A DNA stretch of 64,000 nt from an uncultured Chloroflexia bacterium. Its GTDB lineage: Bacteria; Chloroflexota; Limnocylindria; Limnocylindrales; CSP1-4. The stretch covers positions 114,081-178,080 of the forward strand of contig CAWKLT010000004.1 of the NCBI GenBank assembly GCA_963850555.1. Reading direction: 5' to 3'. The position numbers and the translations under genes were made by a program. This document shows, piece after piece, positions 8,600 through 57,620 of this stretch; within the stretch, counting starts at the first letter, position 1, and the number at the start of each line of letters is the position of its first letter. The notes under the pieces were generated by a model, which was not told where the DNA came from, made no database searches, and worked only from the letters and a program-made list of their open reading frames with translations.

Positions 8600-8683
8600 C
8601 GCCCCCCTGATGGTCCTGTCCGCCGCGGACGGCGATCAGACCGATCGGTCCGGCCGCCTTCCAGCGGGTCGTACCCTGCTCTC

Positions 8684-12914: not shown

Positions 12915-15464
12915 TCAGCTGGCCAGGTGGTCGATGGTCAGGGCCGACGACGCGGCTCGGATCCCCGACGCGGGGCGGCGCGGCTCCCGCAGCGGCCGTT
13001 GGGCCATCAGCATCTCGGTCATGGCATCCGCTTCCTGCGGCCTCGAGAAGAGGTAGCCCTGGCCGTATTCGCAGCCGAGCTCGTGGAGCCGCCGATACTG
13101 CCCCGGTTCCTCGATGCCTTCGGCGATGATGCTCAGCCCGAGCGTCCGGCCGAGGGCCACGATCGCGCCGGCGAATGCCCACTCCTCTTCGCTCTCCGCG
13201 GGCCCGATGAACTCACGCGCGATCTTGAGGATGTCGACCCGGAAGCGGCGCAGGTAGCCGAGCGATGAGTATCCGGTGCCGAAGTCGTCGATCGCGATCC
13301 GGACACCAAGGTCGCGGATGGCCTCGAGGCGCGAGATCGTCGTCGTCGTGTCGTGGAACATCACGGTCTCGGTCATCTCGAGGACCAGCTGCCACGGCGT
13401 CAGCCCGCTCTCTTCGAGGATGGACTTGAGATCGCTGACGAAGGTGGGTTCCTGGAGCTGCTGGGCGGACAGGTTCACCGACATCGTCAGGGGCGGGTCG
13501 GTCGGCCCGAGCCTGGACCATGCCGCGGCCTGACGGCACGCTTCCGACAGGACCCAACGCCCGAGCGGCAGGATCATCCCGTTCTCCTCGGCGAGGTGGA
13601 CGAACTCGCCGGGCCCGATCAGGCCACGGACCGGATGGCGCCAGCGGACGAGGGCCTCCATGCCGGTGACTTCCGCGTTCGAAAGCGTCACGATCGGCTG
13701 GTAGTAGACCGCGAGCTCCCCCTGGCCGAGGCTCCGGGAGAGCTCGGCGCTGAGCGCGTGCCGTTCGACGATGGCGGCGTGCATCGTGGGCTCGAAGACG
13801 GACACGCGGTTCTTGCCGGATGCCTTGGCCGTGTACATCGCGACGTCGGCGTTGCGCAGGAGCTCGTCGGCCCGCTCCGTCCCCAGACGCGCGGCGGCGA
13901 TGCCGATGCTCGCCCCGATGGTCGTGTCGTGCCCGTCGATGGAGAACGCCACGCGCATCGCCTCGATGATCCGGTGGGCGACGGCCTCCGATTCGGACAG
14001 GCCCGGGTCGTCTTCGAGGAGGACCGCGAACTCGTCGCCGCCCAGGCGCGCGGCGACGTCCTCGGTGCGCAGCACGGTCCGCAGGCGCGCCGCCACGTCG
14101 AACAGCAGTCGGTCGCCGGCGGCGTGCCCAAGCGTGTCGTTGACGACCTTGAAGTCGTCGAGGTCCATGAACAGCACGACCGGCATCTTGTCGGTGGGAC
14201 GACTGATCCGGTCCACGACCTTCTCGAGGAACAGGGTCCGGTTCGGGAGGCCGGTCAACGGGTCGTGGTAGGCCTGATGACGGAGCTGCTCCTTGAGCCG
14301 CGACAGCTCGGCCAGGGACTGCTCGAGATGGCCGTTCTCCAGCGCGACCGCGGCCTGGTTGGCCAGGGTCTCGAGCAACCGGAGGTCGTCCTCGCTGAAC
14401 ATCGTGCCCTCGGTCAGGCGGTTGCTGATGATCAGCGAGCCGATCATCTCCGACTCGCCGCGGAGCGCACTCACCATGTGCTGCGACACACGCCCATCCG
14501 GGTCGCGGGTCTCCTCGAAGAACGGCGCCGTCGAGTTGGCGAGACGCAGGTGGATCGGGTCCTCGACGTAGTCCCGGTCCGGGACCATCACGTCGGCCTC
14601 GCGTTCGTGCCAGGAGCGGGTCCGCAGGCCGGCCTCCCCGATGGTTCGCGGGTACAGGACGACCTCCGCCAGCTCGGCGCGGAACATCGTGCGAGCGTGG
14701 CTCAGCAGCGACACCAGGGTCGAGTCGATCTCGGGGGAGTGCTGCAGGATCCGCGACGACTGGTAGAGGAGTTCCAGGCGCTCGTGCTTCTCGCGCTCCG
14801 AGACGTAGGCCTGATAGGCCAGGAAGACCATCGCGACCGGCAGGATCAGCAACCAGAGCATGGCCGGGCTCAACCAAAGCGCGGCGACGGCGAGGAGCGC
14901 GAGGCTCGTGTTCGCCAATGCCACCATCAGACCGAACTGGATCATCTCGGGAAGCTTCCGGAACTGCGGGGCGCCGCCCGAGAGCGTGATGACCGTCGCG
15001 ATCGTGATGGAGCTGATGATCGTCGACGCCGATGTCGCGGCGAACGCCGCGAGCCACTCGCGCAAGCCGGGCATCCCGTCACGGACGACGAGGGCCGACA
15101 CGATGCTGTAGGAGACCACCGCGATCAATCCGAAGTTCGCGAGGTTGAATGCCACCTTGATGGGGCGTTGTCCGGAGGCGAACAGCATCGCGGCGGCCGA
15201 GCCGGTCAGGACGGCCAGGACGTAGTCGGGGGGCGAGAGGAAGAACAGGCCGACGACGGCCGGGAACTCGCTCAGCGAGAACGAGTGGGTCTCGCGCCGG
15301 AAGTGGACCTCGACGACCTTCAGCTCGGCAGCCGCGAAGGCGATGGCGAGGAGGGGCCACGGGATCTGGATCGGGACTTGAGGCGCGGGGAGGCCGTGCA
15401 GCCGTGCGACGTAGATCGCGACCGCGACGAGGATGAGGGTCACGGTCAGACCCCAGACGCGCAC
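12915..15464 (-). CDS. Membrane-anchored GAF-GGDEF-EAL c-di-GMP turnover protein
   Basis: N-terminal ~8 TM helices, a GAF-like region, the GGDEF domain (RLGGDEFAVLL) and the EAL domain (MEALVRWRHP...DDFGTGYSSL). The ORF is open to 15704, but the first 80 codons are Arg-rich and look non-coding, so GTG 15464 is preferred. Confidence 0.88.
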   Translation of the reverse strand: MRVWGLTVTLILVAVAIYVARLHGLPAPQVPIQIPWPLLAIAFAAAELKVVEVHFRRETHSFSLSEFPAVVGLFFLSPPDYVLAVLTGSAAAMLFASGQRPIKVAFNLANFGLIAVVSYSIVSALVVRDGMPGLREWLAAFAATSASTIISSITIATVITLSGGAPQFRKLPEMIQFGLMVALANTSLALLAVAALWLSPAMLWLLILPVAMVFLAYQAYVSEREKHERLELLYQSSRILQHSPEIDSTLVSLLSHARTMFRAELAEVVLYPRTIGEAGLRTRSWHEREADVMVPDRDYVEDPIHLRLANSTAPFFEETRDPDGRVSQHMVSALRGESEMIGSLIISNRLTEGTMFSEDDLRLLETLANQAAVALENGHLEQSLAELSRLKEQLRHQAYHDPLTGLPNRTLFLEKVVDRISRPTDKMPVVLFMDLDDFKVVNDTLGHAAGDRLLFDVAARLRTVLRTEDVAARLGGDEFAVLLEDDPGLSESEAVAHRIIEAMRVAFSIDGHDTTIGASIGIAAARLGTERADELLRNADVAMYTAKASGKNRVSVFEPTMHAAIVERHALSAELSRSLGQGELAVYYQPIVTLSNAEVTGMEALVRWRHPVRGLIGPGEFVHLAEENGMILPLGRWVLSEACRQAAAWSRLGPTDPPLTMSVNLSAQQLQEPTFVSDLKSILEESGLTPWQLVLEMTETVMFHDTTTTISRLEAIRDLGVRIAIDDFGTGYSSLGYLRRFRVDILKIAREFIGPAESEEEWAFAGAIVALGRTLGLSIIAEGIEEPGQYRRLHELGCEYGQGYLFSRPQEADAMTEMLMAQRPLREPRRPASGIRAASSALTIDHLAS

Positions 15465-15801
15465 GACGGCCGGGATCGGGCTCCCGTCCGACTGCAGCCG
15501 TCGTGTGGCCGGTCGGTGGCGCAGGCGCTGCGCGAGTCGCGTCCGCTGGTACGTGGCCCGGCCTCGGTCCGTCAGTCCCCGGATCCGAGTCGACAAAAGA
15601 TGCCGCCCCCTCTTGGTGTGGTTGCGGGAGGGATGGTGATGACTAGGACGGTTGTACCCCTTGGACGGCCCTTGTGCAGCACACCAGGGGTACCGCCCAG
15701 GCATAGGACTATCGGTGCCTCGCAGGCTGATTCGCGGACGCCTGAGCCGTCCGCTGGTAGTCTGCAGCCGTCCCGTCCGAACCCCGTGGAGCTCTCACAG
15801 C

Positions 15802-33471: not shown

Positions 33472-36194
33472 TCAGTCTGCGACCTCGACGACGAGGCTGC
33501 CGACCATGCCCGCTTCCGCGTGGCCCTCGACCGTGCATTCGACGAGGTAGGTTCCGGGCTCATCGATCGTGAACCGGATCTGCTGCGTCTGCCCCGGGCG
33601 CGCCCCGGCGTCCACGTTGGCGAGACCGGTCACCTCCCAGTCGTGGAAGATCGGGTCGTCGTTCGTGAATTCGAGGACGACCGTCTCGCCGGCACGGACG
33701 CGGAGGTCGGCCGGCGTGAAGGCGACGCGCTGGGCCGTGACTTCGAGCTTCGTCGCATTCGCGTCGATGAACCGGTCGGCCGCCAGGACGCCGCCGGCGA
33801 GGACGAGCGATGCGAGCGCGATCGCGCCAAGGAACCACGCTTCGCGCAGGTGCCCCAGCGGTCCTCGCCGGCCGACCCGGTGGACGGCGTCGGGACGGGC
33901 GTCGTACCCGCGCAGCCGGAGCGAGTTGGCGACCACCGACACCGACGAGAGCGCCATCGCGCCAGCGGCGAGCGCGGGCGAGAGCGTGATCCCGAACATC
34001 GGGTAGAGGGCGCCCATCGCGACCGGGATCAGCAGGATGTTGTAGGCGAATGCCCAGAACAGGTTCTGGCGGATGACCGTCATCGTCGCCCGGGACAACC
34101 CGATGGCGGCTGGGACACCGCGCGGGTCACCGCCGATGAGCGTCACGTCGGACGCTTCGATCGCCACGTCCGCGCCCGTGCCGATCGCGATGCCAAGGTC
34201 CGCCTGGGCGAGCGCGGGGGCGTCGTTGATGCCGTCGCCGACCATCGCGACCGTCCGGCCGCGAGCCTGGAGCCGCTGCACGATGGCCGCCTTGTCGGCG
34301 GGTAATGTCTCGGGGACGACGTTGTGGATCGGGATGCCGACCTGCTTGGCCACGGACTCGGCAGTGGCGCGGGCGTCGCCGGTCACGAGCCAGACCTCGA
34401 TCTTCGCGGCGGCCAGCTCGCGAACCGCAGCCTGGGCTTCGACCTTGACGGGGTCGCTGACCGCCAGCAACCCGGCCGCCACGCCGTCCACGGCGACGAT
34501 CGCGGTCGTCCGGCCCGCGCTCGCCGCGGACTCGATCGCGTCTGCCAGCGGCGCCAGGTCGATCCCACCACCCTCGAGCAGCCGACGATTGCCGACGAGG
34601 ACGATGCGAGGCCCGGCGGTCGAATGGACCGTTCCTTGTACGCCGCCACCGATGACCGCTTCGAAGTCCGTGACCCGCCCGAACCCGGCCTCGTCCTGAT
34701 TCGCTCGGGCGACGATCGCCGCTCCGAGCGGGTGCTCGCTCGCGCGCTCGACGGCGCCGGCGAGATCGAGCAGGTCGTGGGTCGTGAATCCGGGAGCGAC
34801 GACGACCTCGGCGACGGTCGGACGCCCGAGGGTCAACGTGCCCGTCTTGTCGAGCACGACGGTGTCCACGCGATGGGCGATCTCGAGCGCCGCACCGCCG
34901 CGGATGAGGATTCCCGCCTCCGCCCCGCGTCCCGTCCCGACCATGATGGCGGTCGGGGTGGCGAGGCCCATCGCGCACGGACACGCGATGACGACCACGC
35001 CGATGAAGGCCGTCAGCGCAAGCGTGATCCGTGGCTCCGGCCCGAACGCCAGCCACGCGAGGAACGTGCCCGCGGCGACGACGAGGACGATCGGGACGAA
35101 GACCTCGGCGATCCGATCGGCGAGTCGCTGGATGGGCGCCTTGCTGCCCTGGGCCCGACTCACGAGGTCCACGATCCGGGCGAGCGCGGTATCGCGTCCG
35201 ACCCGGGTCGCCCGCATCACGAACGTGCCGGTCGTGTTGAGGGTCGCTCCGATGACCTCGGAGCCCGCCGTCACCTCGACCGGCATGGCCTCGCCGGTCA
35301 GCATGCTGGCGTCGACCGCGGAGCCACCCTCGACGACGACACCGTCGACGGGCACCCGCTCCCCCGGCCGGACGCGCAGCAGGTCACCGACCGCCACCGA
35401 CTCGAGCGCCACGTCCTCTTCGCGCCCGTCGGTCACGCGCCGGGCGGTCTTGGCCCCGAGACTCAAGAGCCGCCGGATCGCCCCGGTCGTGCTGGTCTTG
35501 GCGCGATGCTCGAGCCACCGACCGAGCAGGACGAGCCCGACGATGATCGTCGACGAGTCGAAGTAGGTCTCCGGGTGGAGCCCGGCCTCGTGGATGACGT
35601 CGGGGAAGAGCGTCACGACCACGCTGTACAGCCAGGCCGCGCTCGTGCCGACCGCCACGAGCGTGTCCATGTTGGCCGTGCCATGCCGGGCGGCCCGCCA
35701 CGCTGCGCGGTAGAACCGGCGCCCCGCCCAGGCCTGGATGATCGTGGCCGGCACGAGCGCGAGCCAGTTGATGGTCTCCATCGCGACGCTGGTCTGCGGC
35801 ACGAACATCGCGACCATGATCGCGAGGGCGACCGCGATGGAGACGAGCGCCTCGCGAAGCAGCGAGCGTTCCTCGCGCGCGCGGTCGGCGTCGTCCGCGG
35901 ACAGCTCCTCGAGCAGGGAGACCGGGGCCGCGCCGGCGTCGGCGTCGCGCGTGCCGCGACCTCACGGACGTCGTACCCGGCGGCCTCCACGGCCCCGACG
36001 AGGTCGGCGCGACCGGCGACGTCCGGGAGGTAGCGGATCGTGGCCATCTCCGTGGCCAGGTTCACGCTCGCCGTCTGGACGCCTTCGGTCCGGCTCAGGA
36101 AGCGCTCGATGCGATTGACGCACGATGCGCACGTCATGCCCTCGATGGGCAGTTCGATCTCGGTGGAGGCGGCGTCCGCCCGGTCGGTCGTCAT
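33472..36194 (-). pseudogene. copA: Copper-translocating P1B-type ATPase with an extra C-terminal TM helix and cupredoxin domain, frame broken near 35941-35960
   Basis: HMA domain (GMTCASCVNRIE) in the frame of ORF 35613..36248 from ATG 36194. Body in ORF 33472..35817 ([25 protein letters not shown]). C-terminal tail: [21 protein letters not shown] (TM helix), then [32 protein letters not shown]...[21 protein letters not shown]. Length is 2723 nt = 3n+2. Confidence 0.85.
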
Positions 36195-36209
36195 ACTCCA
36201 GGGGAGTAT
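36193..36209. promoter_or_regulatory. CsoR-like inverted repeat overlapping the copA start codon
   Basis: ATACTCC-AGG-GGAGTAT (7-bp arms). On the copA strand it reads TATACTCCCCTGGAGTATG, with the ATG as the copA start. It has the ATAC/GTAT-flanked C/G-tract shape of CsoR operators. Confidence 0.4.
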
Positions 36210-36257
36210 ACCAGACGCGTGCCCGGCGGTCCCCCGACGAGGTGGCACACTAGGCCC

Positions 36258-36910: not shown

Positions 36911-38742
36911 ATGAGCGTCGCGAGCGCGCCTGCCCCATCCATGTTCGCCGTGTTCCGGCGGCGGGACTTCTCCCTGCTGTGGCTGGCGCAGCTCATCTCG
37001 ACCGCCGGCTCCGCGCTCACGGACCTCGCTGCCGGGATCTACGTCTACCGCGAGACCGAGTCGGCCCTGGCGGTCGGCTTGACCCTGATGGTCACGGCTA
37101 TCCCCAGCCTGATCATCGGGCTGCTCGCCGGCGTCTTCGTCGATCGCCACGACCGCAAGAAGATCCTCATCGCGACCTGCCTCATCCAGGCGGTGATCGT
37201 CGCCGCGCTCGCCTTCGTCATCGGCATCGAGGCGATCGCCCTCCCGGGCCTGTACGTCCTGCTGTTCCTCAATGCCGGCGTGAAGCAGTTCTTCGATCCC
37301 GCCCACGACAGCCTGATCCCCGAGATGGCGAGCGACGAGGAGCTCGCGGGGGCGAACTCGTTCCTGTCCATCGCGTCGTTCGGCTCGACCGCCATCGGCT
37401 TCGCCGCAGCCGGCCTTCTGGCGAGCACGGTCGACCTGACCTGGGCGTTCATCATCGATGCGGGGTCCTTCGTCGTGTGCGCCGGGCTGATCGCGCTGAT
37501 GGGCCGGTACCCCATGCCGAAACCGGAGGACGAGGCCAGCGTCGCCGTGATCGTCGCGAACCTGCGATCCGGTATGGGAACGCTGTGGGGGACACCCATC
37601 ATTCGCTCCCTGTTCCTGGTCAGCCGCGTTCATGTTCTTCTCGTTCGGCCTGTGGAACGTCCTGCTGCTGCCCTTCTCGATCCGTGAGCTCGGGGCCACG
37701 GAGTTCGAGTACGGCCTGCAGGAGGGGCTGACGTCCGTCGGCTTCGTCGTGGGCTCGTTCTTCATGGCGCGCTTCTCGAGCCGCCTGCCGGAGCCGCTCT
37801 GGATCGTCATCGGCCTCACGGGCATGGGAGCGGCCGGCATCCTCTACGGCCTGGCCACCTCGATCCCCTTCGCGATCGTCCTCGTCATGATCACCGGGTT
37901 CTTCAACTCGCCGGCGTCGGTGGCGCGGTCGACGCTGATGCAGCGGCACACGCCGCGCGAGATGCGCGGCCGCGTGTTCTCGGCCTTCTATGTCATGCGC
38001 GACATCATCTTCCTGTTCGGCATGGCCGGTGCGGGCCTCGCCGACGTGCTCGACATCCGGCTGCTCATCATCTTCTCCTCGACGCTGCTGTTCGTGTCGG
38101 CCGCATTCGCCCTCGTGGCGCCCGGTCTCGGGCTGGCCTCCATCCGGGCAGCGAGCGACCGACTGCGCGATGCGGAAGCCGCTCCGGACGTCGACGCGAC
38201 GCCGCTCCGCCCGGCGACGGTGCCCGACTTCGGCCGGGTGGCCCTCCACCTCCCGTCCTTCTCGCGGCTGTCCCCGGAGCAGCGCGACGCGTTCCTGCGT
38301 GACGCGCAGATCCGCCAGGTGCCGGCCGGGAACCCGCGTCGTCGAGCACGGCGACGTTGCGAGCTCGGCGTACTTCATCCTCGAGGGCAATGCGACCGCC
38401 GGGATCCCCGATGAGGGCGGATATCGTGGCCTTTCGACGATGGGGGCCGGCGACTTCTTCGGGGAGATCGCGGCGCTGACCGGGAGTCCGCGCACCGCCG
38501 ACGTCGTGGCCGATACCGACCTGACCGTGATGGAGGTGCCGGCCGAGGCGCTGCGCACGGTCATGACCGTGCCGGAGATCCGCAAGCTCGTCCTCTCCAC
38601 GCTGACCTCCCGGCTGCTCAAGACCGAGGCGGCCGACCTGCCGCGGCTGGCCGGCATCGACCAGGAGTCGCTGCGCGACCTGCGCACGCCCCGACGGATC
38701 GTGGTCGCTTCGGCCGGAACCGTTGAGGGCGATGCTTCGTAG
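36911..38742 (+). pseudogene. MFS transporter fused to a C-terminal cNMP-binding domain (paralogue of 20368..22034), two frame breaks (~37619-37626 and ~38331-38332)
   Basis: Three consecutive ORFs carry one protein. 36911.. covers TM1-6 and ends ...IIRSLFLV. 37632.. is (AA)FMFFSFGLWNV... and covers TM7-12, then ...SFSRLSPEQRDAFLRDAQIRQVPAG. The frame of 37990..38742 gives TRVVEHGDVASSAYFILEGNA...GDFFGEIAALTGSPRTADV. Length is 1832 nt = 3n+2. Confidence 0.82.
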
Positions 38743-38744
38743 GG

Positions 38745-38760
38745 TGTGTCACAGCTGACA
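38745..38760. promoter_or_regulatory. CRP/FNR-type palindrome upstream of the small acidic ORF
   Basis: TGTGT-CACAGC-TGACA (compare TGTGA-N6-TCACA). A TACAGT -10-like hexamer lies at 38806-38811, and the ORF ATG is at 38855. Confidence 0.35.
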
Positions 38761-38854
38761 GGCGCCACGTCGCGCGCTGGCCTTGGCTCGCTGCTGGCCC
38801 GGGCGTACAGTCGGCACATCAAGACCGCCTGAAGAGGGACGAAAGGGGCCAGTC

Positions 38855-39067
38855 ATGGTGCGACAGAGGATGAAGCTCCCCAAGGATCAGGCCGTGGAGC
38901 CCGCGGACGTTCGGCCGAGCGCGACCGGCACCGACGACGACGTCGAGGGGCACGGTTTTCCGGTGACGGCACCTCCGAACCCGGTCATCGGCCGCGGCAC
39001 CGGACATGGCGGGGAGGCGACCCCGGCCGTGGACGACGCGGACGACGTCAAGGGCAACCTACGCTAG
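38855..39067 (+). CDS. 70-aa acidic small protein with two DD(x)DDV(E/K)G motifs
   Basis: ATG 38855 follows AAAGGGG with a 7-nt spacer. Sequence: MVRQRMKLPKDQAVEPADVRPSATGTDDDVEGHGFPVTAPPNPVIGRGTGHGGEATPAVDDADDVKGNLR. Convergent with the S8 protease gene. Confidence 0.5.
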   Translation: MVRQRMKLPKDQAVEPADVRPSATGTDDDVEGHGFPVTAPPNPVIGRGTGHGGEATPAVDDADDVKGNLR

Positions 39068-39098
39068 TAACGATCTGTCGCTGCACCGACGTCGTTGC

Positions 39099-39120
39099 GA
39101 CCGCCCAGGCCCGGGCGGTC
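39099..39120. terminator. Hairpin between convergent genes (possible bidirectional terminator)
   Basis: GACCGCCC-AGGCCC-GGGCGGTC followed by GUUUCGAUU. It lies between the stops at 39067 (+) and 39129 (-). Confidence 0.45.
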
Positions 39121-39128
39121 GTTTCGAT

Positions 39129-39938
39129 TCAGGCCGGCGTGCTGGCCGTCGCCGCGAGGAGTGCCTTGATCTCGAACGGCGTGGCCGCCGCATAGCGCGA
39201 CCGCAGGCGCGCGGCCTGGGCAGCCAGATGGGGCGCCGCGAACGAGTTGCCGGTCGCCCGGATCCGCCCGCCATCGCGCCACGGCACGTCCACGTCGACC
39301 CCGAAGGCACCGAACTCCACCGGTGGCGAGGGGTTGTAGAACCAGGCGTCCGGATCGGGGATGTCGTGCGCGGCGACCGACACGACGGCGGCGAAGAGCG
39401 ACGGGTACGAGGGTCCCGGGACGTTGTTCGCGGCACAAACGAGCAGGACGTTGGCGAAATACGCCTGATCCGCGAGCTCATGGAACACGCTGAACATCGC
39501 CTCGCTCCGCGACGACAGGCTCAGGTTCACGACCCCGATCCGCTGCTCGATCGCCCACTCGACGGCGGCCGCGACGGCCCGGCCCTTGCCGCGATTGTCG
39601 GCGCCGAGGACCCGGATCGACACCAGCTCGGCCGCCGGCGCGATGCCGGCGATGATCCCGGCGCACGCGGTCCCGTGCCCGACGAGGTCGGCGCCATGCG
39701 GGTCGTCGACGACGGCGGCATCCTCACCGTCGATGTCGACGCGCATGCGTCGCGTGACGCGGCCCGCGACGCCCGGGTGATCCGCATCGACGCCCGAATC
39801 GACGATGGCCACGACGACCCCGGCACCATCGGCCTCACCGAAGACGGCCTCGCGATCCAGCCGGCCGAACGGCCCTTCCCGCGTGAGCCCGGCTCGCGCG
39901 TCCGCGGCGAAGGCCTCGCTCCACGCCGGCAGGGTCAC
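39129..39938 (-). CDS. S8 (subtilisin-like) serine peptidase without a signal peptide (predicted cytoplasmic)
   Basis: 269 aa. Asp (VVAIVDSGVD), His (GHGTACAGIIAG), Asn (CAANNVPG) and Ser (TGNSFAAPHLAA). The N-terminus MTLPAWSEAFAADARAGL... is not hydrophobic. GTGA overlap with the GAF gene stop. Confidence 0.82.
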   Translation of the reverse strand: MTLPAWSEAFAADARAGLTREGPFGRLDREAVFGEADGAGVVVAIVDSGVDADHPGVAGRVTRRMRVDIDGEDAAVVDDPHGADLVGHGTACAGIIAGIAPAAELVSIRVLGADNRGKGRAVAAAVEWAIEQRIGVVNLSLSSRSEAMFSVFHELADQAYFANVLLVCAANNVPGPSYPSLFAAVVSVAAHDIPDPDAWFYNPSPPVEFGAFGVDVDVPWRDGGRIRATGNSFAAPHLAAQAARLRSRYAAATPFEIKALLAATASTPA

Positions 39939-40750
39939 CGACGGGGCCCCGATCCTGAGCCGCGGTGGACGGCGCCGCGCCGGCGAAGCAACGCCTCGAG
40001 CCAGTCCGCCGCGAGCTCGATCGAATCGGGATCGACGCCGCGCAGCCGGGCGATCTGGTCGGCCAGCCGCCAGGTCGGGTCCTCGGGGTCCGTCGAGAGG
40101 GCCAGCGTCGCGTCGCTCACGAGCGCATCGATCGCCCCCTCGTCGAGCGCTTTGTCACGGGTCTCCCCGCCGTCCCCCGCGGCGAGCGCGACCAGGGCCG
40201 CGCGCAGGAGCGAGACCGCGTCACCGGCCGACCGGCGGCGTCGAACGATCGTCGTCGCCGCGGACGCGAGGGCGCCGGCGATCTCGAGGTCGCGCAGGGT
40301 GAACGTCCCGCCACGCCGATCGAGGACCTCCAGCACGCCGATCGTGCCCTCGGCGTCGGTGAGCGGTGTCGCGAGGATGGACGCCGGGACATAGCCGGTG
40401 GCCTCGGCGATGGTGCGGTCGAACCGGGGATCGGTCGTCACGTCGGCGATCGCGAGTTGCTGGCCGGTCGTGAACGCGTAGCCCGCGATCCCCGCGGCCG
40501 GATCGATCTGCATCCCGATGACGTCGCCGCCGGCCGAACCCGCGCTGGCGAGGAACACCAGCCGGTCGGCGCTCGGGTCGTGGACCGCGACGGAGGCCGC
40601 CTGGGCGTCGAGCACGACCGTCGCCGTCGTCACGATCGTGGCGAGGAGGTCGTCATCGGCGACGGGGGTGATCCGCTGGGCCGCGTCCAGGCGTCGCGCC
40701 ACTGCCGCGATCGCCAGCAGCGTCTCGTCGGCCGCTCGGCGATCGGTCAC
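39935..40750 (-). CDS. GAF-domain protein with a ~100-aa helical C-terminal region
   Basis: 271 aa: ...ATVVLDAQAASVAVHDPSADRLVFLASAG...GIAGYAFTTGQQLAIADV..DPRF...ILATPL...GTIGVLEVLDRR. GTGA overlaps at both ends (Crp upstream, S8 downstream). Confidence 0.8.
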   Translation of the reverse strand: MTDRRAADETLLAIAAVARRLDAAQRITPVADDDLLATIVTTATVVLDAQAASVAVHDPSADRLVFLASAGSAGGDVIGMQIDPAAGIAGYAFTTGQQLAIADVTTDPRFDRTIAEATGYVPASILATPLTDAEGTIGVLEVLDRRGGTFTLRDLEIAGALASAATTIVRRRRSAGDAVSLLRAALVALAAGDGGETRDKALDEGAIDALVSDATLALSTDPEDPTWRLADQIARLRGVDPDSIELAADWLEALLRRRGAVHRGSGSGPRR

Positions 40751-41487
40751 CGGCGCGCAGCAGCGGCCAGCCGAGCCGCGTCCGGGATCACGAGGTCGTC
40801 GCCCTCGAAGCGCAGCAGGCCCTGCGCCACGAAGTCCGCGAGCAGGCGATTCACCGATTGACGGGAGCCGCCGATCATCCCGGCGAGCTCGCCCTGCGTG
40901 TACGGCCAGGGCAGACGCTGCTCGCCCGTCTCGAGCGGCGGCGGCCAGGACCCGCCATCGTCACCGCCGGGCAACGCGCGCAGCAGGTGGCGCGCCAGGC
41001 GCCCGGGCAGGTCCAGGAAGTGGAGATCCCCGAATTGGGCCGTGAGGCGGCGGATCTCGGTCGCCAGGGCCGCCAGCAACTCGCGTCGAAGGACCGGCTG
41101 CTCGTCCACGAGTCGGTCGAAGGCGTCGCGCCGCAGGACCTGGGTCTCCACGGCACCGACCGCGACCGCCGTCGCGGACCGGGCTGCCCCATCGAGCAGG
41201 GCCAGCTCCCCGAAGAACCCACCCGGCGCGATCGTCGTCAGGATGGCGGGGTCCGATCCGTCGCCCGGCGGGATCGTGATCTTCACCCGCCCCGAGGTCA
41301 CGATGAACAAGGCATCCCCGGGATCGTCCACGTGGAAGATCGTCTCCCCGCGTCGAAAGCGGCGCGGGCCGAGCGCCGCGGCCACGATGCCGAGGATCGG
41401 CTCGTCGAGGCCGGAGAACAGCCGACATTCGCGCAGCGCGTCATGCGCCAGCGCGGTGTCTCCGGATCGAGCGACCATGCCGCCCAT
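40747..41487 (-). CDS. Crp/Fnr-family transcriptional regulator (cNMP-binding domain plus HTH)
   Basis: 246 aa: LFSGLDEPILGIVAAAL...GDALFIVTSGRVKI...GGFFGELALLDGAARSATAVA...YTQGELAGMIGGSRQSVNRLLADF. Confidence 0.88.
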   Translation of the reverse strand: MGGMVARSGDTALAHDALRECRLFSGLDEPILGIVAAALGPRRFRRGETIFHVDDPGDALFIVTSGRVKITIPPGDGSDPAILTTIAPGGFFGELALLDGAARSATAVAVGAVETQVLRRDAFDRLVDEQPVLRRELLAALATEIRRLTAQFGDLHFLDLPGRLARHLLRALPGGDDGGSWPPPLETGEQRLPWPYTQGELAGMIGGSRQSVNRLLADFVAQGLLRFEGDDLVIPDAARLAAAARR

Positions 41488-41550
41488 CGTACGCGGGCGG
41501 GCATTCCCACGCGGGCCGCGCGGCTGTGGCGGGTCGAGGTCCCGGCCGCT

Positions 41551-41955
41551 TCAGGATCGGGGGATGGGCCGCATCGGGTAGACGCCCACGACGACCGGCG
41601 TCCGTGGATCGAGCGACAGCTCGTAGCCGATCTCGCCGCCGCGTAGCAATTCGCCCAGGAGCGAGCCTTCCCGCGATGGCAGGCCGACGTACACGTTGCC
41701 CTGCTCGATGGAGACCTGGGTGACGTCGTCGTCGTCGCCGTCGATCGCGAAGCGGCGTCGCAGCTCGTGCATCGGCACATAGGGGCGGCTCTTGATGAAG
41801 CGCCGGAGCTGTGGCGCGGTACAGCCGTTCGAGCGCTCCTGGCCGTTGGGCCCACCGGGACCGTGCCCGTTGGTCGGCCCGGGACCGTGGCCGTTGGGGC
41901 GGCCGTTCGCGCCGGCGGGCGGCGGTGCCGATCGGTCCCGTCCCATGCTTGCCAT
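41551..41955 (-). CDS. Hypothetical protein: Gly/Pro/Asn-rich N-terminus plus a conserved-looking ~90-aa C-terminal domain
   Basis: 134 aa: ...NGRPNGHGPGPTNGHGPGGPNG...CTAPQLRRFIKSRPYVPMHELRRRFAIDGDDDDVTQVSIEQGNVYVGLPSREGSLLGELLRGGEIGYELSLDPRTPVVVGVYPMRP. It ends 63 nt upstream of crp on the same strand. The start is uncertain (the frame is open upstream to ~42100). Confidence 0.55.
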   Translation of the reverse strand: MASMGRDRSAPPPAGANGRPNGHGPGPTNGHGPGGPNGQERSNGCTAPQLRRFIKSRPYVPMHELRRRFAIDGDDDDVTQVSIEQGNVYVGLPSREGSLLGELLRGGEIGYELSLDPRTPVVVGVYPMRPIPRS

Positions 41956-54138: not shown

Positions 54139-54321
54139 CGTACGCGAGCCCGCCGGTGCGGGCCGACCGCGTAAAGGCGTGCTCCTTCGTCGTGGTGCGA
54201 AATAAAGGTTGGCGCGGCGCGAATATCGCGAGGTCGCCCGATGGCACGGGCCGGTGCGCGCCCTACGTTAGGGACATCGCGAAGACCAACGACCGCGATA
54301 CACCGCAACGAGGGAACTCCG

Positions 54322-54504
54322 ATGACCGCCGAGATCACCATCCTGACCGCCGCTCACGACCACCACGCCGAGCTCCTGGCCGAGGCCGATGCCCGACGCC
54401 TGCTCCGCCGGTCGGACGCTCCGACTTCCGGGTCGCAGCCGGCCACCAAGCAACGCCTGAGCACGCTGATCCGCCGGCTCGCCGGCGCTACGTCCTTCGC
54501 CTGA
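54322..54504 (+). CDS. 60-aa small ORF upstream of the second LAL regulator
   Basis: ATG 54322 is preceded by GAGGGA with a 6-nt spacer. Sequence: MTAEITILTAAHDHHAELLAEADARRLLRRSDAPTSGSQPATKQRLSTLIRRLAGATSFA. It lies in a locally lower-GC intergenic stretch. Confidence 0.3.
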   Translation: MTAEITILTAAHDHHAELLAEADARRLLRRSDAPTSGSQPATKQRLSTLIRRLAGATSFA

Positions 54505-54548
54505 TCGTGCCGGTCGCCGCTCCGGGAGGGGAGCGTGGCTCCCGTACC

Positions 54549-57500
54549 ATGAGCCGCGTGACGACACGCGTCTCGAGCCCCCTCTTCATCGGACGTCAGC
54601 CGGACCTCCTGGCCCTGATGGAGGCCGTCGATCGGGCCAGCGCCGGTGAGGCGGCCGTCATCCTCATCGGCGGCGAAGCCGGCATCGGCAAGACCCGGCT
54701 GATCGACGAAGTCGGCGCTCGCGCACGCGAGGGTGGCGCGCTCCTCCTCGAAGGCGGCTGCGTCAGCCTGGGAGATGGCGGCGGCCTTCCGTACGCACCG
54801 ATCGTCGAGGCCCTGCGGAGACTGCCGGCGACGCTCGCGGGCAGCCGATTCCGCGATATCGAGTTCGACGACCTGCGAACCCCCGCGACCGCCGAGCTCG
54901 GTCGACTCCTGCCCGAGTTCGGGGCCCCAGCGGTGGCGGACGCCGGAGGCACCGGGCGCCCGGAATGGGCGCAGGCGAGGATCTTCGAGGGCGTCCTCGC
55001 GCTCCTTCGCGACCTCGGGGATCGGGCGCCGGTCGTGTGCGTCCTCGAGGACCTGCACTGGGCGGACAGCTCGACTCGGGATCTCGTCGCCTTCCTGGCT
55101 CGCAACGTTCGAACCGAGCGCCTCGTCGTCGTCGGGACGTATCGAACGGACGAGCTGCATCGCCGGCATCCACTCCGGCCGTGGCTCGCGGAGATGGACC
55201 GCCTGCCGCGGGTCCGACGGATGGAGCTGGCGAGGTTCGGGCCTTCGGAGCTCAGCGCACAGGTCGAGGCGATCATCGGTCACGCGGCGGAGGCCGATCT
55301 GCTCGAGGCGATCGGGCGACGGGCGGAAGGCAATCCCTTCTTCATCGAGGAGCTCCTCGCGGCGCGCGGTGGCGGCCACGCCGAGTCGGGACTGCCGGAC
55401 ACCTTGCGCGAGGTGCTACTCGCGCGGGTCTCGGCCCTGTCCGAGGATGCCCAGCGCATCCTGGGCATGGCCGCCGTAGCCGGGCGCTCGGTGGACGCGG
55501 GCCTGCTCGGGGAGGTGGCCGCGCGGCCAGAACCGGAGCTCGAGGAGCCGCTCCGCGAGGCGCTCGCCGCGCAACTCCTGGTCAGCGACACGGACGATGG
55601 TCGCTACCGATTCCGCCACGCCCTGCTCGCCGAGGCCGTCTACGACGATCTCCTCCCGTCGGAACGACGCCGCCTCCATGCCGCCTACGCGTCGGCCCTC
55701 GATGCGCGGCCGGTGCCAGAGGGCGCGGAGGGCGCCAGCCTCCTCGCGGCCCTCGCCCACCACGCCACCGCGGCGCACGAACCCGTGCGCGCCCTGCGTG
55801 CCTGGATCGCGGCCGCACGCGCCGCCGCCGATGCCTATGCGTTCGCCGAGAGCGTCCGCTCGTACGAGCATGCGATCGGGCTGTGGGATGCCGTCCCGCC
55901 GGACGATCGGCCCGATGGCGTTGACGCGGCCACGCTCCACTACGAGGCGAGTCTGGGAGCGATGGTCGTCGGCCGACTGGATCTGGCCGTGGACCTGGCC
56001 CGTGTCTCGGTCGGACTGGTCGATCCGGTGCGCGAACCCGAACGGTGGGCAACCGCCAATGAGCGCCTCGCGCGGGCCGCATGGGTATCGGGCGCGACCC
56101 AGGAGGGCACCGATATCCTCGAAGCGACAGCGGCGGCGATGGAACGCGCCGGTCCATCGCCCGAACGCGCCCGGGTGCTCGCATCCCTGGCGAGCGCGTA
56201 CATGCTTCGCGGGGGTCACGCGCGGGCCATCCCGATCGCACAGGCCGCGATCGACCTCGCCCGTTCGACCGACGCCGCGCTGGCCGAGGCGCATGCCATG
56301 AGCACCCTCGGAACGAGCCTGACGCTCATCGGGCGGTGCGCCGACGGGACCTCGGTCTCTCGTGAAGCCTTCTCCCGCAATCTTGCGGATGGCGACGTCG
56401 ATTCCATCGGTCGGGCGCATGCCAACTACAGCTCGGTCCTGCTCATCTGCGGGGCGTTCGAGAAGAGCATCGAGGTCGCAGAAGCCGGGGTTGTCTGGGC
56501 CCGATCCGCCGGGGCGTACGAGCAGTACGGCCGATTCATCGGCGGGAACGTCGCCGACGCCCAGATCGAGCTGGGCCGCTGGGATGCCGCGGAGGCGACG
56601 ATCGACGACCTTCTCGCCGCGGACGTGTCCGGCGTGACTCGCGTCGGCACCCTCGCCGTTGCCGGCACGTTCCTCGTGCGGCGCGGTCGTGCGGCAGACG
56701 CCCGGCCGCTCCTGGCCGAGGGCCGCGTGCTCGTGGAGTCGATGCGGGATGCCCAGTTCACCGGGCCCATCCACCTCGGCCTCGTCGAGTTGGCGTTGAC
56801 CGACGAGGACGCCGTCATGGCGGCAGCCATCGCCGGAGAGGCCCTCGATCGACTGGCGAACACCGGGGACCGCTTCTACGCCCTCGAACTCGCGTCCGCG
56901 GCTGCTCGCGCGGAGGCCGACGCAGCGAACCTGGCCCGGGCCCTCCGCGACGACGCCGGAGCCGCGGGGGCGAGCGAGCGCGCCCGGAGCGCGGCCGCGA
57001 TGCTCGAGCGGATGCAAGGCGAGCTGGCGGGAGCCGACGCGTTCGGTGGTCGTCTGGACAGCACGACAGCCATCGCGCTCGCCGAAAGCCGTCGCGCCGA
57101 GGGCTCGGCCGAGCCGGACGCGTGGCGAGCGGCGATCGAGGCCGCGGATCGTGCCGGCAGTGCCTGGACGAAGGCCTATGTCCGCTTCCGCCTCGCCGAG
57201 TCGATGCTCGAGTCGCGGGCGTCGCGCCGGGATGCCGAGGCGGCGCTCGCCGAGGCCCACGCTGCCGCGGATCGTCTTGGTGCCGCTCCCCTTCGGGACT
57301 GGATCGAAGGACTCGCTCGGCGGGCACGGGTGCGGATGCCAGAACCCGCGGCGGTCGGCGTCGTGGCAACGGCCGATGACGGCGACGGCGTGGACCCGAA
57401 GCCATCCGCTGCGACCGTCGCGCTCGACCGCCTGGGCCTGACCCGGCGTGAGTTGGAGGTGCTCCCGCTCGTCGCCGCGGGTCATACGAACAAGCGCATC

Positions 57501-57620
57501 GCCGAGCTGCTGTTCATCAGCGAGAACACGGCCGGCGTCCACGTGTCGAACATCCTCGGCAAGCTCGGAGTCGCCACCCGAACGGAGGCTGCGGCCATCG
57601 CCGCGCGGCTTGGGCTCTGA
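54549..57620 (+). CDS. LAL-family (large ATP-binding LuxR) transcriptional regulator, paralogue of 8684..11497
   Basis: From ATG 54549: MSRVTTRVSSPLFIGRQPDLLALMEAVDRASAGEAAVILIGGEAGIGKTRLIDE..., a long helical/TPR-like middle region, and the C-terminal [45 protein letters not shown]. Confidence 0.87.
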   Translation: MSRVTTRVSSPLFIGRQPDLLALMEAVDRASAGEAAVILIGGEAGIGKTRLIDEVGARAREGGALLLEGGCVSLGDGGGLPYAPIVEALRRLPATLAGSRFRDIEFDDLRTPATAELGRLLPEFGAPAVADAGGTGRPEWAQARIFEGVLALLRDLGDRAPVVCVLEDLHWADSSTRDLVAFLARNVRTERLVVVGTYRTDELHRRHPLRPWLAEMDRLPRVRRMELARFGPSELSAQVEAIIGHAAEADLLEAIGRRAEGNPFFIEELLAARGGGHAESGLPDTLREVLLARVSALSEDAQRILGMAAVAGRSVDAGLLGEVAARPEPELEEPLREALAAQLLVSDTDDGRYRFRHALLAEAVYDDLLPSERRRLHAAYASALDARPVPEGAEGASLLAALAHHATAAHEPVRALRAWIAAARAAADAYAFAESVRSYEHAIGLWDAVPPDDRPDGVDAATLHYEASLGAMVVGRLDLAVDLARVSVGLVDPVREPERWATANERLARAAWVSGATQEGTDILEATAAAMERAGPSPERARVLASLASAYMLRGGHARAIPIAQAAIDLARSTDAALAEAHAMSTLGTSLTLIGRCADGTSVSREAFSRNLADGDVDSIGRAHANYSSVLLICGAFEKSIEVAEAGVVWARSAGAYEQYGRFIGGNVADAQIELGRWDAAEATIDDLLAADVSGVTRVGTLAVAGTFLVRRGRAADARPLLAEGRVLVESMRDAQFTGPIHLGLVELALTDEDAVMAAAIAGEALDRLANTGDRFYALELASAAARAEADAANLARALRDDAGAAGASERARSAAAMLERMQGELAGADAFGGRLDSTTAIALAESRRAEGSAEPDAWRAAIEAADRAGSAWTKAYVRFRLAESMLESRASRRDAEAALAEAHAAADRLGAAPLRDWIEGLARRARVRMPEPAAVGVVATADDGDGVDPKPSAATVALDRLGLTRRELEVLPLVAAGHTNKRIAELLFISENTAGVHVSNILGKLGVATRTEAAAIAARLGL

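Follow-up and report, generated by a model that had tools for sequence, protein, structure and literature searches.

A conserved locus linking a minimal subtilase, a GAF protein and DVEGH-motif proteins in Chloroflexota and Actinomycetota: a possible peptide-processing system

The stretch of DNA analysed here (the window, 64,000 nt from an uncultured Chloroflexia bacterium) carries a conserved set of five parts in one copy: a Crp regulator, an acidic disordered motif protein, a minimal subtilase, a GAF protein translationally coupled or fused to the subtilase, and an MFS_3–cNMP transporter. In the reading that we favour, to which we attach evenly balanced confidence, the motif protein would be a cleaved substrate and the products would be exported. 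A first-pass annotation had pointed to tightly coupled Crp, GAF and S8 protease genes facing a small acidic ORF preceded by a CRP-like site, and this observation is real. In the proposed mechanism, cAMP-bound Crp would bind a TGTC-N8-GACA operator and activate the motif-protein gene. A GAF–S8 complex, with GAF as an allosteric or substrate-recruiting subunit, would then cleave the motif-bearing protein at every motif, most probably on the C-terminal side of His/Gln (P4 = V/T, P3 = E, P2 = G/A, P1 = H/Q), and a cNMP-gated MFS pump would export the resulting short peptides or their products.

Gene linkage across two phyla

On the minus strand of the window, genes for a Crp/Fnr-family regulator of 246 aa (40747..41487), a GAF-domain protein of 271 aa (39935..40750) and an S8A-like subtilase of 269 aa (39129..39938) are joined, as first described, by GTGA stop/start overlaps, which read cGGTGAc at both the Crp/GAF and the GAF/S8 junctions. 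A 134-aa ORF (41551..41955) lies 63 nt upstream of the Crp gene on the same strand. The cNMP, GAF and S8 domains all have Pfam matches (cNMP_binding at 79.1 bits with HTH_Crp_2 at 51.9 bits, GAF_2 at 53.9 bits, Peptidase_S8 at 101.6 bits).

Comparison was made with 82 related loci from Limnocylindria, Anaerolineales and Actinomycetota, with S8 identities of 93–47%, and the GAF–S8 adjacency spans two phyla and this whole range. The GAF gene adjoins the S8 gene, upstream of it, in 77 of 78 testable loci; both orders, GAF→S8 and S8→GAF, are seen across loci, and natural GAF–S8 fusion proteins occur (P0146, P0149, P0164 and P0194). One fusion locus (L084) also has Crp, MFS-cNMP and DVEGH ORFs together with the palindrome. 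Among the 53 loci with at least 5 kb on both sides, about 47 have a Crp gene within 8 kb of S8, in four different positions or orientations, and 44 have an MFS-cNMP gene there. The co-occurrence of Crp, GAF and S8 is kept far outside this genome.

The interpretation first given is partly supported. The linkage, the GAF–S8 fusions, the small gene and the operator motif speak for it; gating by a nucleotide or other ligand, the part played by GAF, and a role of the peptide as substrate, inhibitor or co-factor are proposals. The 134-aa protein (a conserved C-terminal domain of ~85 aa behind an N-terminal part of low complexity, with no match in Pfam, NCBIfam or the PDB) is encoded only in Limnocylindria loci; its gene is a lineage-specific neighbour outside the cross-phylum core.

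The small acidic ORF and the DVEGH-motif family

The 70-aa acidic ORF (38855..39067, plus strand) is a genuine gene, conserved as orthologues in related loci; it starts at ATG 38855, with an AAGGGG Shine–Dalgarno sequence 6 nt before it. Both motifs ascribed to it are present, the first intact (DDDVEGH, aa 27–33, 38933–38953) and the second (DDVKGN; DVKGN at 39044–39058) degenerate. Its orthologues share KLPKDQ.VEP...DDVEGHG[FL]PVTAPP...GHGGE...DDVEGH and differ by synonymous third-base changes. The protein matches no Pfam or NCBIfam family, and its 10 database entries are all unnamed. What the first-pass annotation had missed is the uncurated family behind this ORF: tandem-repeat proteins, of which it is the minimal form.

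The family motif, D-D-[VT]-E-G-[HQ] or D-E-V-x-A-H, occurs in 1–19 copies separated by hypervariable spacers of low complexity and rapid evolution. ORFs with at least two motifs were found in 53 of the 82 loci versus 0 of 82 reversed or shuffled controls, and the remaining 55 kb of the window had none. The period of the motif-encoding tandem arrays is divisible by 3 in 125 of 127. About 30% of related loci lack a motif ORF by the patterns used, a figure that is partly a lower bound, some loci being short contigs; this counts against the preferred reading. In Anaerolineales and some actinobacterial members, a helical leader (..KKLSALRATLxNDERxxLDE..) precedes the first motif and a follower (VFDPxKEEY) is conserved.

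Linkage was also approached from the motif side: metagenome contigs were scanned for two 15-mers that code for DVEGH, S8 not being used as a criterion. This reverse test yielded 120 loci. Where at least 1.5 kb was available on both sides, S8 or GAF was found in 11 of 13 loci and some system gene in 12 of 13; with at least 3 kb on both sides, the same was true of all four.

Operator, promoter and regulator

The CRP-like site noted before the small ORF (TGTGT-N6-TGACA; TGTGTCACAGCTGACA, 38745..38760) is present, as is the TACAGT hexamer (38806–38811), and the site is an instance of an operator motif found family-wide upstream of such genes. The family consensus is TGTC(G/A)-N6-(C/T)GACA; the left half is degenerate in this window (TGTGT), and a palindrome stands at the same position in L001–L003. 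Within the window TGTGT-N6-TGACA has one match versus 2.1 expected by chance; the significance of the candidate operator comes from conservation across loci and not from chance statistics. In 1.13 Mb of related loci TGTC-N8-GACA has 73 sites, versus 4 in the reversed and 4 in the shuffled controls; a palindrome followed by a motif ORF makes up 62 pairs in 55 of 83 loci, and the reverse-test loci hold 82 palindromes in 443 kb versus ~1.6 expected.

Downstream, a promoter-like pair (TTGGCT at 38783–38788, a 17-nt spacer and TACAGT; 38783..38811, plus strand) was read from the sequence; a generic sigma-70 scan did not call it, and the -10 is kept as TACAGT or TAGAGT in L001 and L002. In Anaerolineales and Actinomycetota, the spacing from palindrome to TAtnnT -10 is fixed at 21 nt. 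The consensus of 46 Limnocylindria promoters contains a proximal half-site, here GTCGC (38769..38773, plus strand), 8 nt after the palindrome, which would put the centre of a second, degenerate site near -42; its GTC is invariant in these promoters, with information content at the level of the palindrome core. The operator's centre would fall at about -41.5 or, where the proximal half-site is added, at about -65. Such positions are those of CRP class I/II promoters of E. coli and actinobacteria, with a 16-bp TGT-N10-ACA repeat at about -41.5 or tandem upstream sites, and M. smegmatis cydA has tandem Crp sites, one of them centred at about -65.5 (PMC7739888). As in those systems, the linked Crp has an intact cNMP cassette, its phosphate-binding cassette being canonical (FFGELALLDGAARSATA); the half-site TGTC(G/A) here differs from the actinobacterial TGTGA-N6-TCACA, and binding is a prediction. 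The recognition helix (SRQSVNR) follows a pattern kept across loci, R-Q/E-[ST]-V-[NA]-[RK]; helix and operator variants show no covariation, which counts against the preferred reading. The regulator is a local, system-specific paralogue, scoring 66.5 bits against a CRP equivalog cut-off of 266 (NCBIfam).

A near-palindrome with one mismatch to the operator pattern (TGTCGCTGCACCGACG, 39076..39091) lies in the convergent intergenic region; over the window as a whole, degenerate matches of this kind number 59 versus 100 expected, with no enrichment. Next comes the reported hairpin (39097..39122), terminator-like and bidirectional, which separates the small ORF from the S8 gene. It has a 10-bp stem (dG -32.2 kcal/mol, z = -3.2, equalled by 0 of 200 shuffles) and then UUUCGAUU; L001 and L002 have a hairpin of different sequence at the equivalent place.

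The operator is demonstrable only upstream of motif genes and sometimes of the 134-aa gene (L023, L024 and L029), not upstream of GAF–S8. This distribution is what would be expected if the DVEGH proteins were Crp-regulon stress proteins independent of GAF–S8, either hydrophilin/LEA-like or His/acidic metal-binding disordered proteins, whose proximity reflects a shared cAMP regulon. The motif proteins are indeed acidic and very hydrophilic (GRAVY -0.75), and some variants are His-rich (DDDTEGHGHHHK in L065, GHGHKVK in L027). We nevertheless regard such mere co-regulation as improbable: GAF–S8 adjacency survives rearrangement over two phyla and several gene orders, and the association also holds in the direction from motif to S8, which exceeds usual regulon membership. 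Metal binding as the conserved function is countered by the motif His itself, which whole clades replace with Gln and L068 with Leu-Gln; the neighbouring Cu-ATPase gene is confined to Limnocylindria.

The subtilase, its GAF partner and the motif as a putative cleavage site

The S8 protein is a predicted cytoplasmic subtilase. The catalytic segments first reported (DSGVD, GHGTACAG, AANN and GNSFAAP) are all in the sequence, and the absence of a signal peptide agrees with the lack of any hydrophobic N-terminal stretch (maximum KD10 of 0.72 in the first 40 aa). A search for a hidden signal peptide or a longer N-terminus found neither, the homologues having the same length (269–271 aa) and the same N-terminus. 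In the alignment, the Asp, His, oxyanion Asn and Ser are kept in the homologues, apart from one with a Thr in place of the Ser and another that a frameshift has garbled, and an N-terminal LPAWS..F motif is conserved. The S8 profile matches subtilisin BPN' at 4e-51 and the ‘intracellular serine protease’ 7y6m at 3e-42; an AF2 model of moderate confidence (pLDDT 67.7) matched Ca-loop-deleted BPN' at TM ~0.65. The best NCBIfam matches, QhpE and mycosin, are both under cut-off. QhpE, the quinohemoprotein amine dehydrogenase leader peptidase, is likewise a small cytoplasmic subtilase trimming a specific peptide; here its model reaches 111.4 bits versus a cut-off of 165, and there are no qhp genes nearby.

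The GAF protein has an N-terminal helix, a GAF domain (aa 33–168) and a conserved helical C-terminal region of ~100 aa; in its AF2 model the core reaches pLDDT 70–84, and the C-terminal region is of low confidence.

The proposed cutting at the motif draws on its likeness to sites recognised by known S8 leader proteases. PatA cuts after G(L/V)E(A/P)S, which shares with the (V/T)-E-(G/A)-(H/Q) found here an aliphatic P4, a Glu at P3 and a small P2, and cytoplasmic ElxP requires Gln-1 and Leu-4 (PMC10885120). The cyanobactin system (PatA/PatG with PatE) is also alike in joining a cytoplasmic S8 protease to a precursor with a short conserved motif repeated between variable segments. It differs in that the present system lacks a heterocyclase, a macrocyclase insert and a DUF domain, has a GAF partner, a Crp operator and a cNMP-gated MFS, occurs in Chloroflexota and Actinomycetota, and cleaves its motif protein only by prediction; the PatA/PatG NCBIfam model gives 19 bits on the S8 protein versus a cut-off of 421. 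In the logic of the arrangement, an analogy is offered by yeast alpha-factor and Kex2 (an S8 kexin), where tandem peptides and recognition spacers turn one precursor into many products; that system differs in its eukaryotic secretory pathway, dibasic sites and P-domain protease. A single alignment column, corresponding to BPN' 154 in the S1-pocket wall, separates loci with P1 = Gln from those with P1 = His (P1 as in the putative cleavage-site assignment), and the adjoining loop has a 1-aa insertion; the covariation is based on one clade, and Ser stands at this column in one P1 = His locus too (L081, from the cultured carrier Phycicoccus flavus CMS6Z-2).

The same data could be read otherwise. 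The motif proteins might be multivalent GAF–S8 regulators (pseudo-substrate inhibitors, activators or scaffolds, each motif of which binds GAF or the active site), and the protease would then have its real targets elsewhere among the cytoplasmic proteins, as Bacillus intracellular subtilisins (ISPs) do in stationary phase. Genomic linkage is equally compatible with this regulatory role, and the spacers, in proteins of 1 to 19 motif copies, fit multivalent disordered-protein linkers as well as peptide cores, which counts against the substrate reading. The S8 protein resembles the ISPs of Bacillus and Planococcus (7y6m and B. clausii ISP 2xrm among its sequence/structure matches) in its minimal subtilisin domain without signal peptide or I9 pro-domain and in its short conserved N-terminal extension. 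Its LPAWS..F sits where ISPs have the inhibitory, ISP-defining LIPY/F pro-peptide, which is absent here (PMC6220982). S8 fusions with Ser/Thr kinases and with a LuxR HTH also occur and suggest a signalling protease. The S8 sequence is nearer to BPN' than to ISPs, which have no GAF partner, Crp/MFS linkage or dedicated motif proteins; in its P4/P2/P1 pattern the motif is like cleaved S8 sites and unlike known subtilisin inhibitors, and the exporter-type MFS linkage together with an ABC exporter–S8 fusion in the same subfamily is easier to explain by export. We take the regulatory role to be an unlikely alternative.

The transporter and the fate of the putative peptides

Directly upstream of the small ORF lies a gene that the first-pass annotation had missed, the fifth core component, encoding an MFS_3 transporter with a C-terminal cNMP-binding domain (36911..38742, plus strand; orthologues match MFS_3, MFS_1 and cNMP_binding in Pfam). 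The copy here is broken by 1-nt insertions at ~37624 and ~38331, defined against the intact 620-aa L003 orthologue (95% identical); in tblastn, matches to the intact 612-aa L002 orthologue are spread over three frames. Together with the degenerate operator half and the degenerate second motif, these two frameshifts count against the preferred reading. MFS pumps are, moreover, unusual exporters for peptides of 15–35 aa, which counts against the export step.

A further reading is a true RiPP pathway, in which an unrecognised or non-adjacent enzyme modifies spacers or motifs and S8 acts only as leader/follower peptidase. The conserved leader and follower described above would suit it, as would a LuxR–S8 relative that has a GAF gene and then two radical SAM genes behind it. 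Neither around 31 distant loci nor in the Limnocylindria loci is any modifying-enzyme family conserved, and the Cys/Ser/Thr patterns usual in modified cores are missing from the spacers, so that we consider a RiPP pathway quite unlikely.

Cleavage of the motif protein by GAF–S8 followed by export remains our preferred reading. As first suspected, neither Pfam nor NCBIfam nor the literature searched describes the gene combination. The linked set of protease, GAF, Crp, MFS-cNMP and DVEGH proteins is shared by hundreds of bacteria from soil and fresh water, which points to a peptide-processing system not yet described and not to a chance gene cluster.

The GAF–subtilase pair

The four minus-strand open reading frames (ORFs) proposed by the first-pass annotation can all be read from the window, namely an S8 subtilase (39129–39938), a GAF-domain protein (39935–40750), a Crp/Fnr regulator (40747–41487) and a 134-aa protein (41551–41955). 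Its description of this region was accurate, since the ORFs, overlaps, catalytic residues, CRP-like site, −10 box and hairpin were all found. The GTGA stop/start overlaps lie at both the GAF/S8 and Crp/GAF junctions, each reading GGTGA (4 nt), and Pfam bears out the domain assignments (Peptidase_S8, GAF/GAF_2, and cNMP_binding with HTH_Crp_2). The protease scores 101.6 bits against PF00082 (cut-off 21.8), and its triad and oxyanion Asn follow one another as in subtilases. The Asp/His/Asn/Ser set, claimed to be intact, consists of D47, H88, N172 and S232 in DSGVD, GHGTACAG, AANN and GNSFAAP, and the four residues are kept in the aligned homologues. The enzyme was said to be without a signal peptide, and a hydrophobic N-terminal stretch is indeed absent; a search for a hidden longer N-terminus found none, length and N-terminus being the same as in >100 homologues.

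Assignment to a described subtilase class fails in each case tried. An extracellular pre-pro-subtilisin was rejected since Pfam gives the S8 domain alone, with no I9, and the N-terminus is short and non-hydrophobic. QhpE was rejected on score (NF049966, 111.4 bits versus an equivalog cut-off of 165) and on neighbourhood, which holds GAF, Crp, transporter and small-ORF genes and no qhp context; a type VII secretion mycosin on score (TIGR03921, 106.8 bits versus 278.75) and on the lack of a hydrophobic terminus; and cyanobactin PatA/PatG on score (TIGR03895, 19.1 bits versus 421). Intracellular subtilisin proteases (ISPs) are characterized by an N-terminal pro-peptide with an inhibitory LIPY/F motif (PMC6220982); the present enzyme is, like them, cytoplasmic and minimal, but its conserved N-terminus reads LPAWS..F, not LIPY/F. 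The position of this motif, where ISPs have theirs, suggests an auto-inhibitory segment. In sequence and structure matches, the domain is nearest to Ca-loop-deleted variants of subtilisin BPN′ and to intracellular serine proteases.

The GAF protein exceeds the Pfam thresholds for GAF_2 (53.9 versus 28.6 bits) and GAF (51.1 versus 22.4 bits), and carries a conserved helical C-terminal region of ~100 aa, for which the AF2 model is of low confidence. It may act as a ligand sensor, a recruiter or an inhibitor. The single-chain AF2 models are moderate for the protease (pLDDT 67.7) and poor for the GAF protein (61.1 overall, 70–84 in the GAF core, <50 in the C-terminal region), and thus add little beyond fold assignment.

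Conservation of the locus

Relatives of the protease were collected by scanning GTDB, one genome per species, with a single peptide pattern; of at least 559 matches the best 80, with identities from 93% to 47%, were fetched. These 80 come from Limnocylindria, Anaerolineales and Actinomycetota, the last including Gaiellaceae, Nocardioides and Propionibacteriales metagenome-assembled genomes (MAGs) as well as the cultured Phycicoccus flavus CMS6Z-2 (NZ_SAYU02000012, locus L081). Linkage was assessed with phmmer, window proteins being compared with six-frame ORFs of all fetched loci, which belong to the best of the at least 559 relatives. Among them, 77 of the 78 loci with enough upstream DNA have a GAF gene directly upstream of the S8 gene and in the same orientation. 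The linkage of Crp, GAF and S8, noticed in this genome, is therefore kept in other genomes among these best relatives, with GAF–S8 as its core. Of the 53 loci with at least 5 kb on both sides, a crp gene is present by strict criteria in 41 and by inspection in six more. It has four placements, being co-directional or divergent where it lies upstream, and co-directional or convergent where it lies downstream.

An exhaustive search for S8 representatives gave 206 clusters at E ≤ 1e-30, including fusions of the GAF-S8, S8-Ser/Thr-kinase, LuxR-HTH-S8 and ABC-exporter-S8 types; the alternative order, S8 then GAF, also occurs. At the GAF-S8 fusion locus L084, Crp, the MFS transporter with a cNMP-binding domain (MFS-cNMP), two ORFs of the DVEGH repeat family and the palindrome described below are again present. 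Three relatives with other architectures (L087, 1467–5538; L083, 1317–4594; L086, 2301–5102) were also noted. In one, a LuxR-HTH-S8 gene precedes a GAF gene and two radical SAM genes; in another, an ABC-exporter-S8 fusion has behind it a 125-aa ORF that ends in ...AHAACCPWGHGVVGF; in a third, a degenerate GAF gene and a small ORF, which has EAEVAGF and a leader of the DER type, lie ahead of an S8-Ser/Thr-kinase fusion.

The small ORF and the DVEGH repeat proteins

The 70-aa acidic ORF (38855–39067, +) is a real gene, as had been supposed: its ATG at 38855 lies behind an AAGGGG ribosome-binding site, and its orthologues keep KLPKDQ.VEP...DDVEGHG[FL]PVTAPP...GHGGE...DDVEGH through synonymous DNA changes. 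In the window, the second motif reads DVKGN, a degenerate form. The hairpin reported after the gene spans 39097–39122, with a 10-bp stem (dG −32.2 kcal/mol, z = −3.2). A protein search retrieved 10 close relatives only, because short ORFs are seldom called. The gene product is the minimal member of a family of repeat proteins that is large and uncurated.

ORFs beside the system genes of other loci hold 2–19 motif copies, in versions D-D-[VT]-E-G-H, D-D-T-E-G-Q or, in Anaerolineales, (A/D)-E-V-[EAI]-A-H-[SK]-[ML]; a further version at locus L068, D-E-V-K-L-Q, has Leu-Gln in place of the otherwise conserved Gly/Ala-His. The spacers are of low complexity, 8–35 aa long and wholly different from species to species. 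Conserved ends are present in some lineages: Anaerolineales proteins carry a helical leader, KKLSALRATLxNDERxxLDE, with the follower VFDPxKEEY, and a related leader is found beside an S8-kinase fusion; in Limnocylindria a tail is added at the C-terminus, for example NPxLARxLARAKERDIQR or FGQLRSPSSRGE. Among loci of the best of the at least 559 S8 relatives, ORFs with at least two motifs occur in 53/82, versus 0/82 reversed or shuffled controls, and the rest of the window (55 kb) has no such ORF. The period of the tandem arrays encoding the motif is divisible by three in 125/127. The repeat gene of L068 (6000–7033) has 16.4 copies of a 63-nt unit encoding DEVKLQSMKTGQKLGQKLQDA, and their 97% identity indicates recent expansion. 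Compared with Pfam and NCBIfam, the small, repeat and 134-aa proteins belong to no family and give repeat artefacts only. An ATCUN-type N-terminus created by a V|EGH cut was considered and set aside since whole clades have Gln for His.

The association was also approached from the motif. Metagenome contigs were scanned for two DVEGH-coding 15-mers 21–51 nt apart, no system protein being used, which gave 120 loci. With at least 1.5 kb on both sides of the motif, S8 or GAF is found in 11/13 and at least one system gene in 12/13; with at least 3 kb on both sides, a system gene is found in 4/4, and with at least 1.5 kb on at least one side, in 52/64. The motif scan thus recovers the system genes, and the association is reciprocal. 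In the 443 kb that these loci make up there are 82 palindromes, versus ~1.6 expected at the control rate. Motif proteins could be independent stress or metal-binding disordered proteins of a Crp regulon, a reading for which the palindromes before the motif genes may speak and the reciprocal association with S8 and GAF genes does not; we consider it unlikely.

The Crp regulator and its putative operator

The regulator combines cNMP_binding (79.1 bits) and HTH_Crp_2 (51.9 bits) domains of Pfam with the phosphate-binding cassette FFGELALLDGAARSATA, of the pattern FGE...R[ST]A; its identification as an equivalog of E. coli CRP was rejected (66.5 bits versus 266). Common to the linked Crps are the recognition helix R-Q/E-[ST]-V-[NA]-[RK] and an intact FGE...RSA cassette. 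The CRP-like site noted upstream of the small ORF is present as TGTGT-N6-TGACA (38745–38760), followed by TACAGT (38806–38811), but taken alone it is unremarkable, with 1 match in the window versus 2.1 expected. Comparison of loci reveals it as a palindrome, TGTC-N8-GACA, whose left half is degenerate (TGTGT) in the window. Among loci of the best of the at least 559 S8 relatives, this palindrome occurs 73 times in 1.13 Mb, versus 4 times in reversed and 4 in shuffled sequence, and 55/83 loci have one upstream of a motif ORF, at a distance of up to 330 nt.

CRP-dependent promoters have an inverted repeat TGT-N10-ACA that the regulator binds at a fixed activating position. The present promoters may be of this kind, the palindrome and its spacing to the predicted −10 box being conserved. 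In Anaerolineales and Actinomycetota, 21 nt separate the palindrome from the TAtnnT box that follows it, and its centre would thus lie at ~−41.5, the class II position. A set of 46 Limnocylindria promoters, the window's included, shares an invariant GTC 8 nt after the palindrome; with TACAGT as −10 box, the window palindrome would be centred near −65 and the GTC half-site near −42. A tandem arrangement with a Crp site centred at −65.5 is known from cydA of M. smegmatis (PMC7739888). From their co-localization, the linked Crps are probably the proteins that bind the palindrome. Covariation of the recognition helix with operator variants was sought and none found; an explanation of TGTC by E181 → Q was dropped because TGTC sites persist where the helix reads RESVNR.

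A generic promoter and terminator scan of the region gave no useful match, and additional degenerate operators are not enriched in the window (59 versus 100 expected). One such sequence, TGTCGCTGCACCGACG at 39076–39091, between the stop of the small ORF and the hairpin, is one mismatch from the operator pattern; it may be due to chance, given this lack of enrichment. A second TGTC-N8-GACA lies between the M24 peptidase and 134-aa genes at three loci (L023, 4359; L024, 4429; L029, 4360), so that in some Limnocylindria the 134-aa protein may belong to the same regulon.

The MFS-cNMP transporter and other neighbours

Directly upstream of the small ORF, and absent from the first-pass annotation, is a gene for an MFS_3 transporter with a C-terminal cNMP-binding domain (36911–38742, +). 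In the window, insertions of 1 nt at two places (~37624, where CAGCCGCG has one C too many, and ~38331, where GGAACCC has one A too many) divide it among three frames, as seen against the intact 620-aa orthologue of locus L003 (95% identical). Either the assembly has errors of the homopolymer type or the gene is a true pseudogene. MFS-cNMP is present in 44/53 loci with at least 5 kb on both sides, among the best of the at least 559 S8 relatives.

The window has ~71% G+C, and the closest relatives of its proteins are found in MAGs labelled Chloroflexota or Candidatus Limnocylindrales. At the orthologous loci L001 and L002 the order is the same: the M24 peptidase, 134-aa, Crp, GAF and S8 genes follow one another on one strand, and the other strand carries the small ORF, the MFS-cNMP gene and ogt. 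Across related loci, the 134-aa gene, M24 peptidase, CBS protein, ogt and Cu-ATPase are neighbours in Limnocylindria only. The 134-aa protein itself has no family in Pfam or NCBIfam and no match in a PDB sequence search. A copper or metal link through the adjoining ATPase was rejected, this neighbour being limited to 21 Limnocylindria loci, all within L003–L048. The copper-type P-type ATPase (33472–35817, −) has a C-terminal cupredoxin-like domain; its HMA-type N-terminus (MTCASCVNRIERF) is in a separate overlapping ORF (35613–36248, −), which suggests another frameshift.

At L001, the system's crp has directly beside it a gene (987–4379, −) for a class III nucleotide cyclase (Guanylate_cyc) of 1130 aa, which also has AAA and TPR domains and is a possible local source of cyclic nucleotide. 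Elsewhere in the window are its sole Rfam match, a c-di-GMP-I-GGC riboswitch aptamer (12103–12178, −; 61.9 bits versus a gathering score of 59), with a GAF-GGDEF-EAL protein close by (12915–15704, −), and two large regulators that each combine AAA_16 with a LuxR-HTH (8588–11497, +, 969 aa; 54156–57620, +, 1154 aa).

A proposed model of substrate cleavage and export

The five components are co-inherited, GAF and S8 can be fused, the catalytic and cNMP-binding residues are intact, and the operator precedes the motif genes. In the model favoured here, cAMP-Crp would switch on the motif gene, the GAF–S8 pair would cut the motif protein at every motif, and the MFS-cNMP pump would export the fragments; as read from the genes, this model as a whole could equally well hold or fail. 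The motif would suit a subtilase if the cut follows His/Gln, with P4 = V/T, P3 = E, P2 = G/A and P1 = H/Q (residues N-terminal to the supposed cut). Among known enzymes, PatA cuts after G(L/V)E(A/P)S, and the cytoplasmic ElxP depends on Gln-1 and Leu-4 (PMC10885120). The sole alignment column splitting the six P1 = Gln loci from the P1 = His loci is the equivalent of BPN′ Gly154, in the wall of the S1 pocket, which is Asn in His loci and Ser in Gln loci, with a one-residue insertion in the adjoining loop. This hints weakly at covariation of pocket and P1, within one clade and with one exception (L081, Phycicoccus flavus).

Alternatively, the protease could be a regulatory one that has the motif proteins as its pseudo-substrates or multivalent regulators, with no release of peptides; motif multiplicity would suit this reading too and the cNMP-linked transporter less evidently, and we regard it as rather improbable. 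A RiPP cluster has, besides a precursor, at least one dedicated modifying enzyme. A true RiPP pathway with an unrecognized modifying enzyme would account for leaders and followers, but the neighbourhoods examined share no conserved family of such enzymes, and radical SAM genes lie beside one distant LuxR-S8/GAF relative only; this seems very doubtful.

Relation to known systems and significance

Subtilase-dependent maturation of multi-core precursors is familiar from Kex2/alpha-factor and from cyanobactins, to which the present system may be likened from its genes; with cyanobactins it shares motif-flanked repeated units, a likeness of logic and not of membership. Its promoters appear to be of the CRP type. 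Anti-phage defence was rejected: PADLOC gives weak single-domain matches only (a subtilase model at 56.5 bits, and cNMP domains to Pycsar effectors), and throughout a class the locus keeps its synteny with housekeeping genes. The gene combination had not been recognized as a described system, and this judgement stands: the GAF partner, the DVEGH-type family, the TGTC-N8-GACA operator and the cNMP-gated MFS are absent from Pfam, NCBIfam, PADLOC and the literature searched, where motif strings and GAF/subtilisin combined with Crp, MFS or RiPP returned nothing relevant. There is a substantial chance that the system is more distinct than the kinds compared here.

In its widest form, which we put forward tentatively and think clearly less probable than not, the proposal is that Chloroflexota and Actinomycetota of soil and freshwater have, widely distributed among them, an undescribed cAMP-gated system of ribosomal peptides. 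A dedicated Crp would switch on tandem-repeat pro-proteins, a GAF-regulated cytoplasmic subtilase would cut at each DVEGH-type motif and species-specific peptides would leave by the cNMP-gated MFS, a bacterial counterpart of Kex2/alpha-factor possibly used in cell–cell signalling. The cultured carrier Phycicoccus flavus makes this hypothesis testable. To our knowledge, MFS-cNMP fusions have no assigned role in Actinobacteria, mycobacteria included. If true, the proposal would give these transporters their first functional context, the cytoplasmic subtilase a new regulatory architecture in the form of a GAF partner or fusion, and the local Crp paralogue a defined operator. It would also establish a new family of precursors of ribosomal peptides, a widespread one, since a single S8 pattern matched at least 559 species-level genomes, and a candidate cAMP-controlled peptide output for Limnocylindria and related uncultured Chloroflexota.
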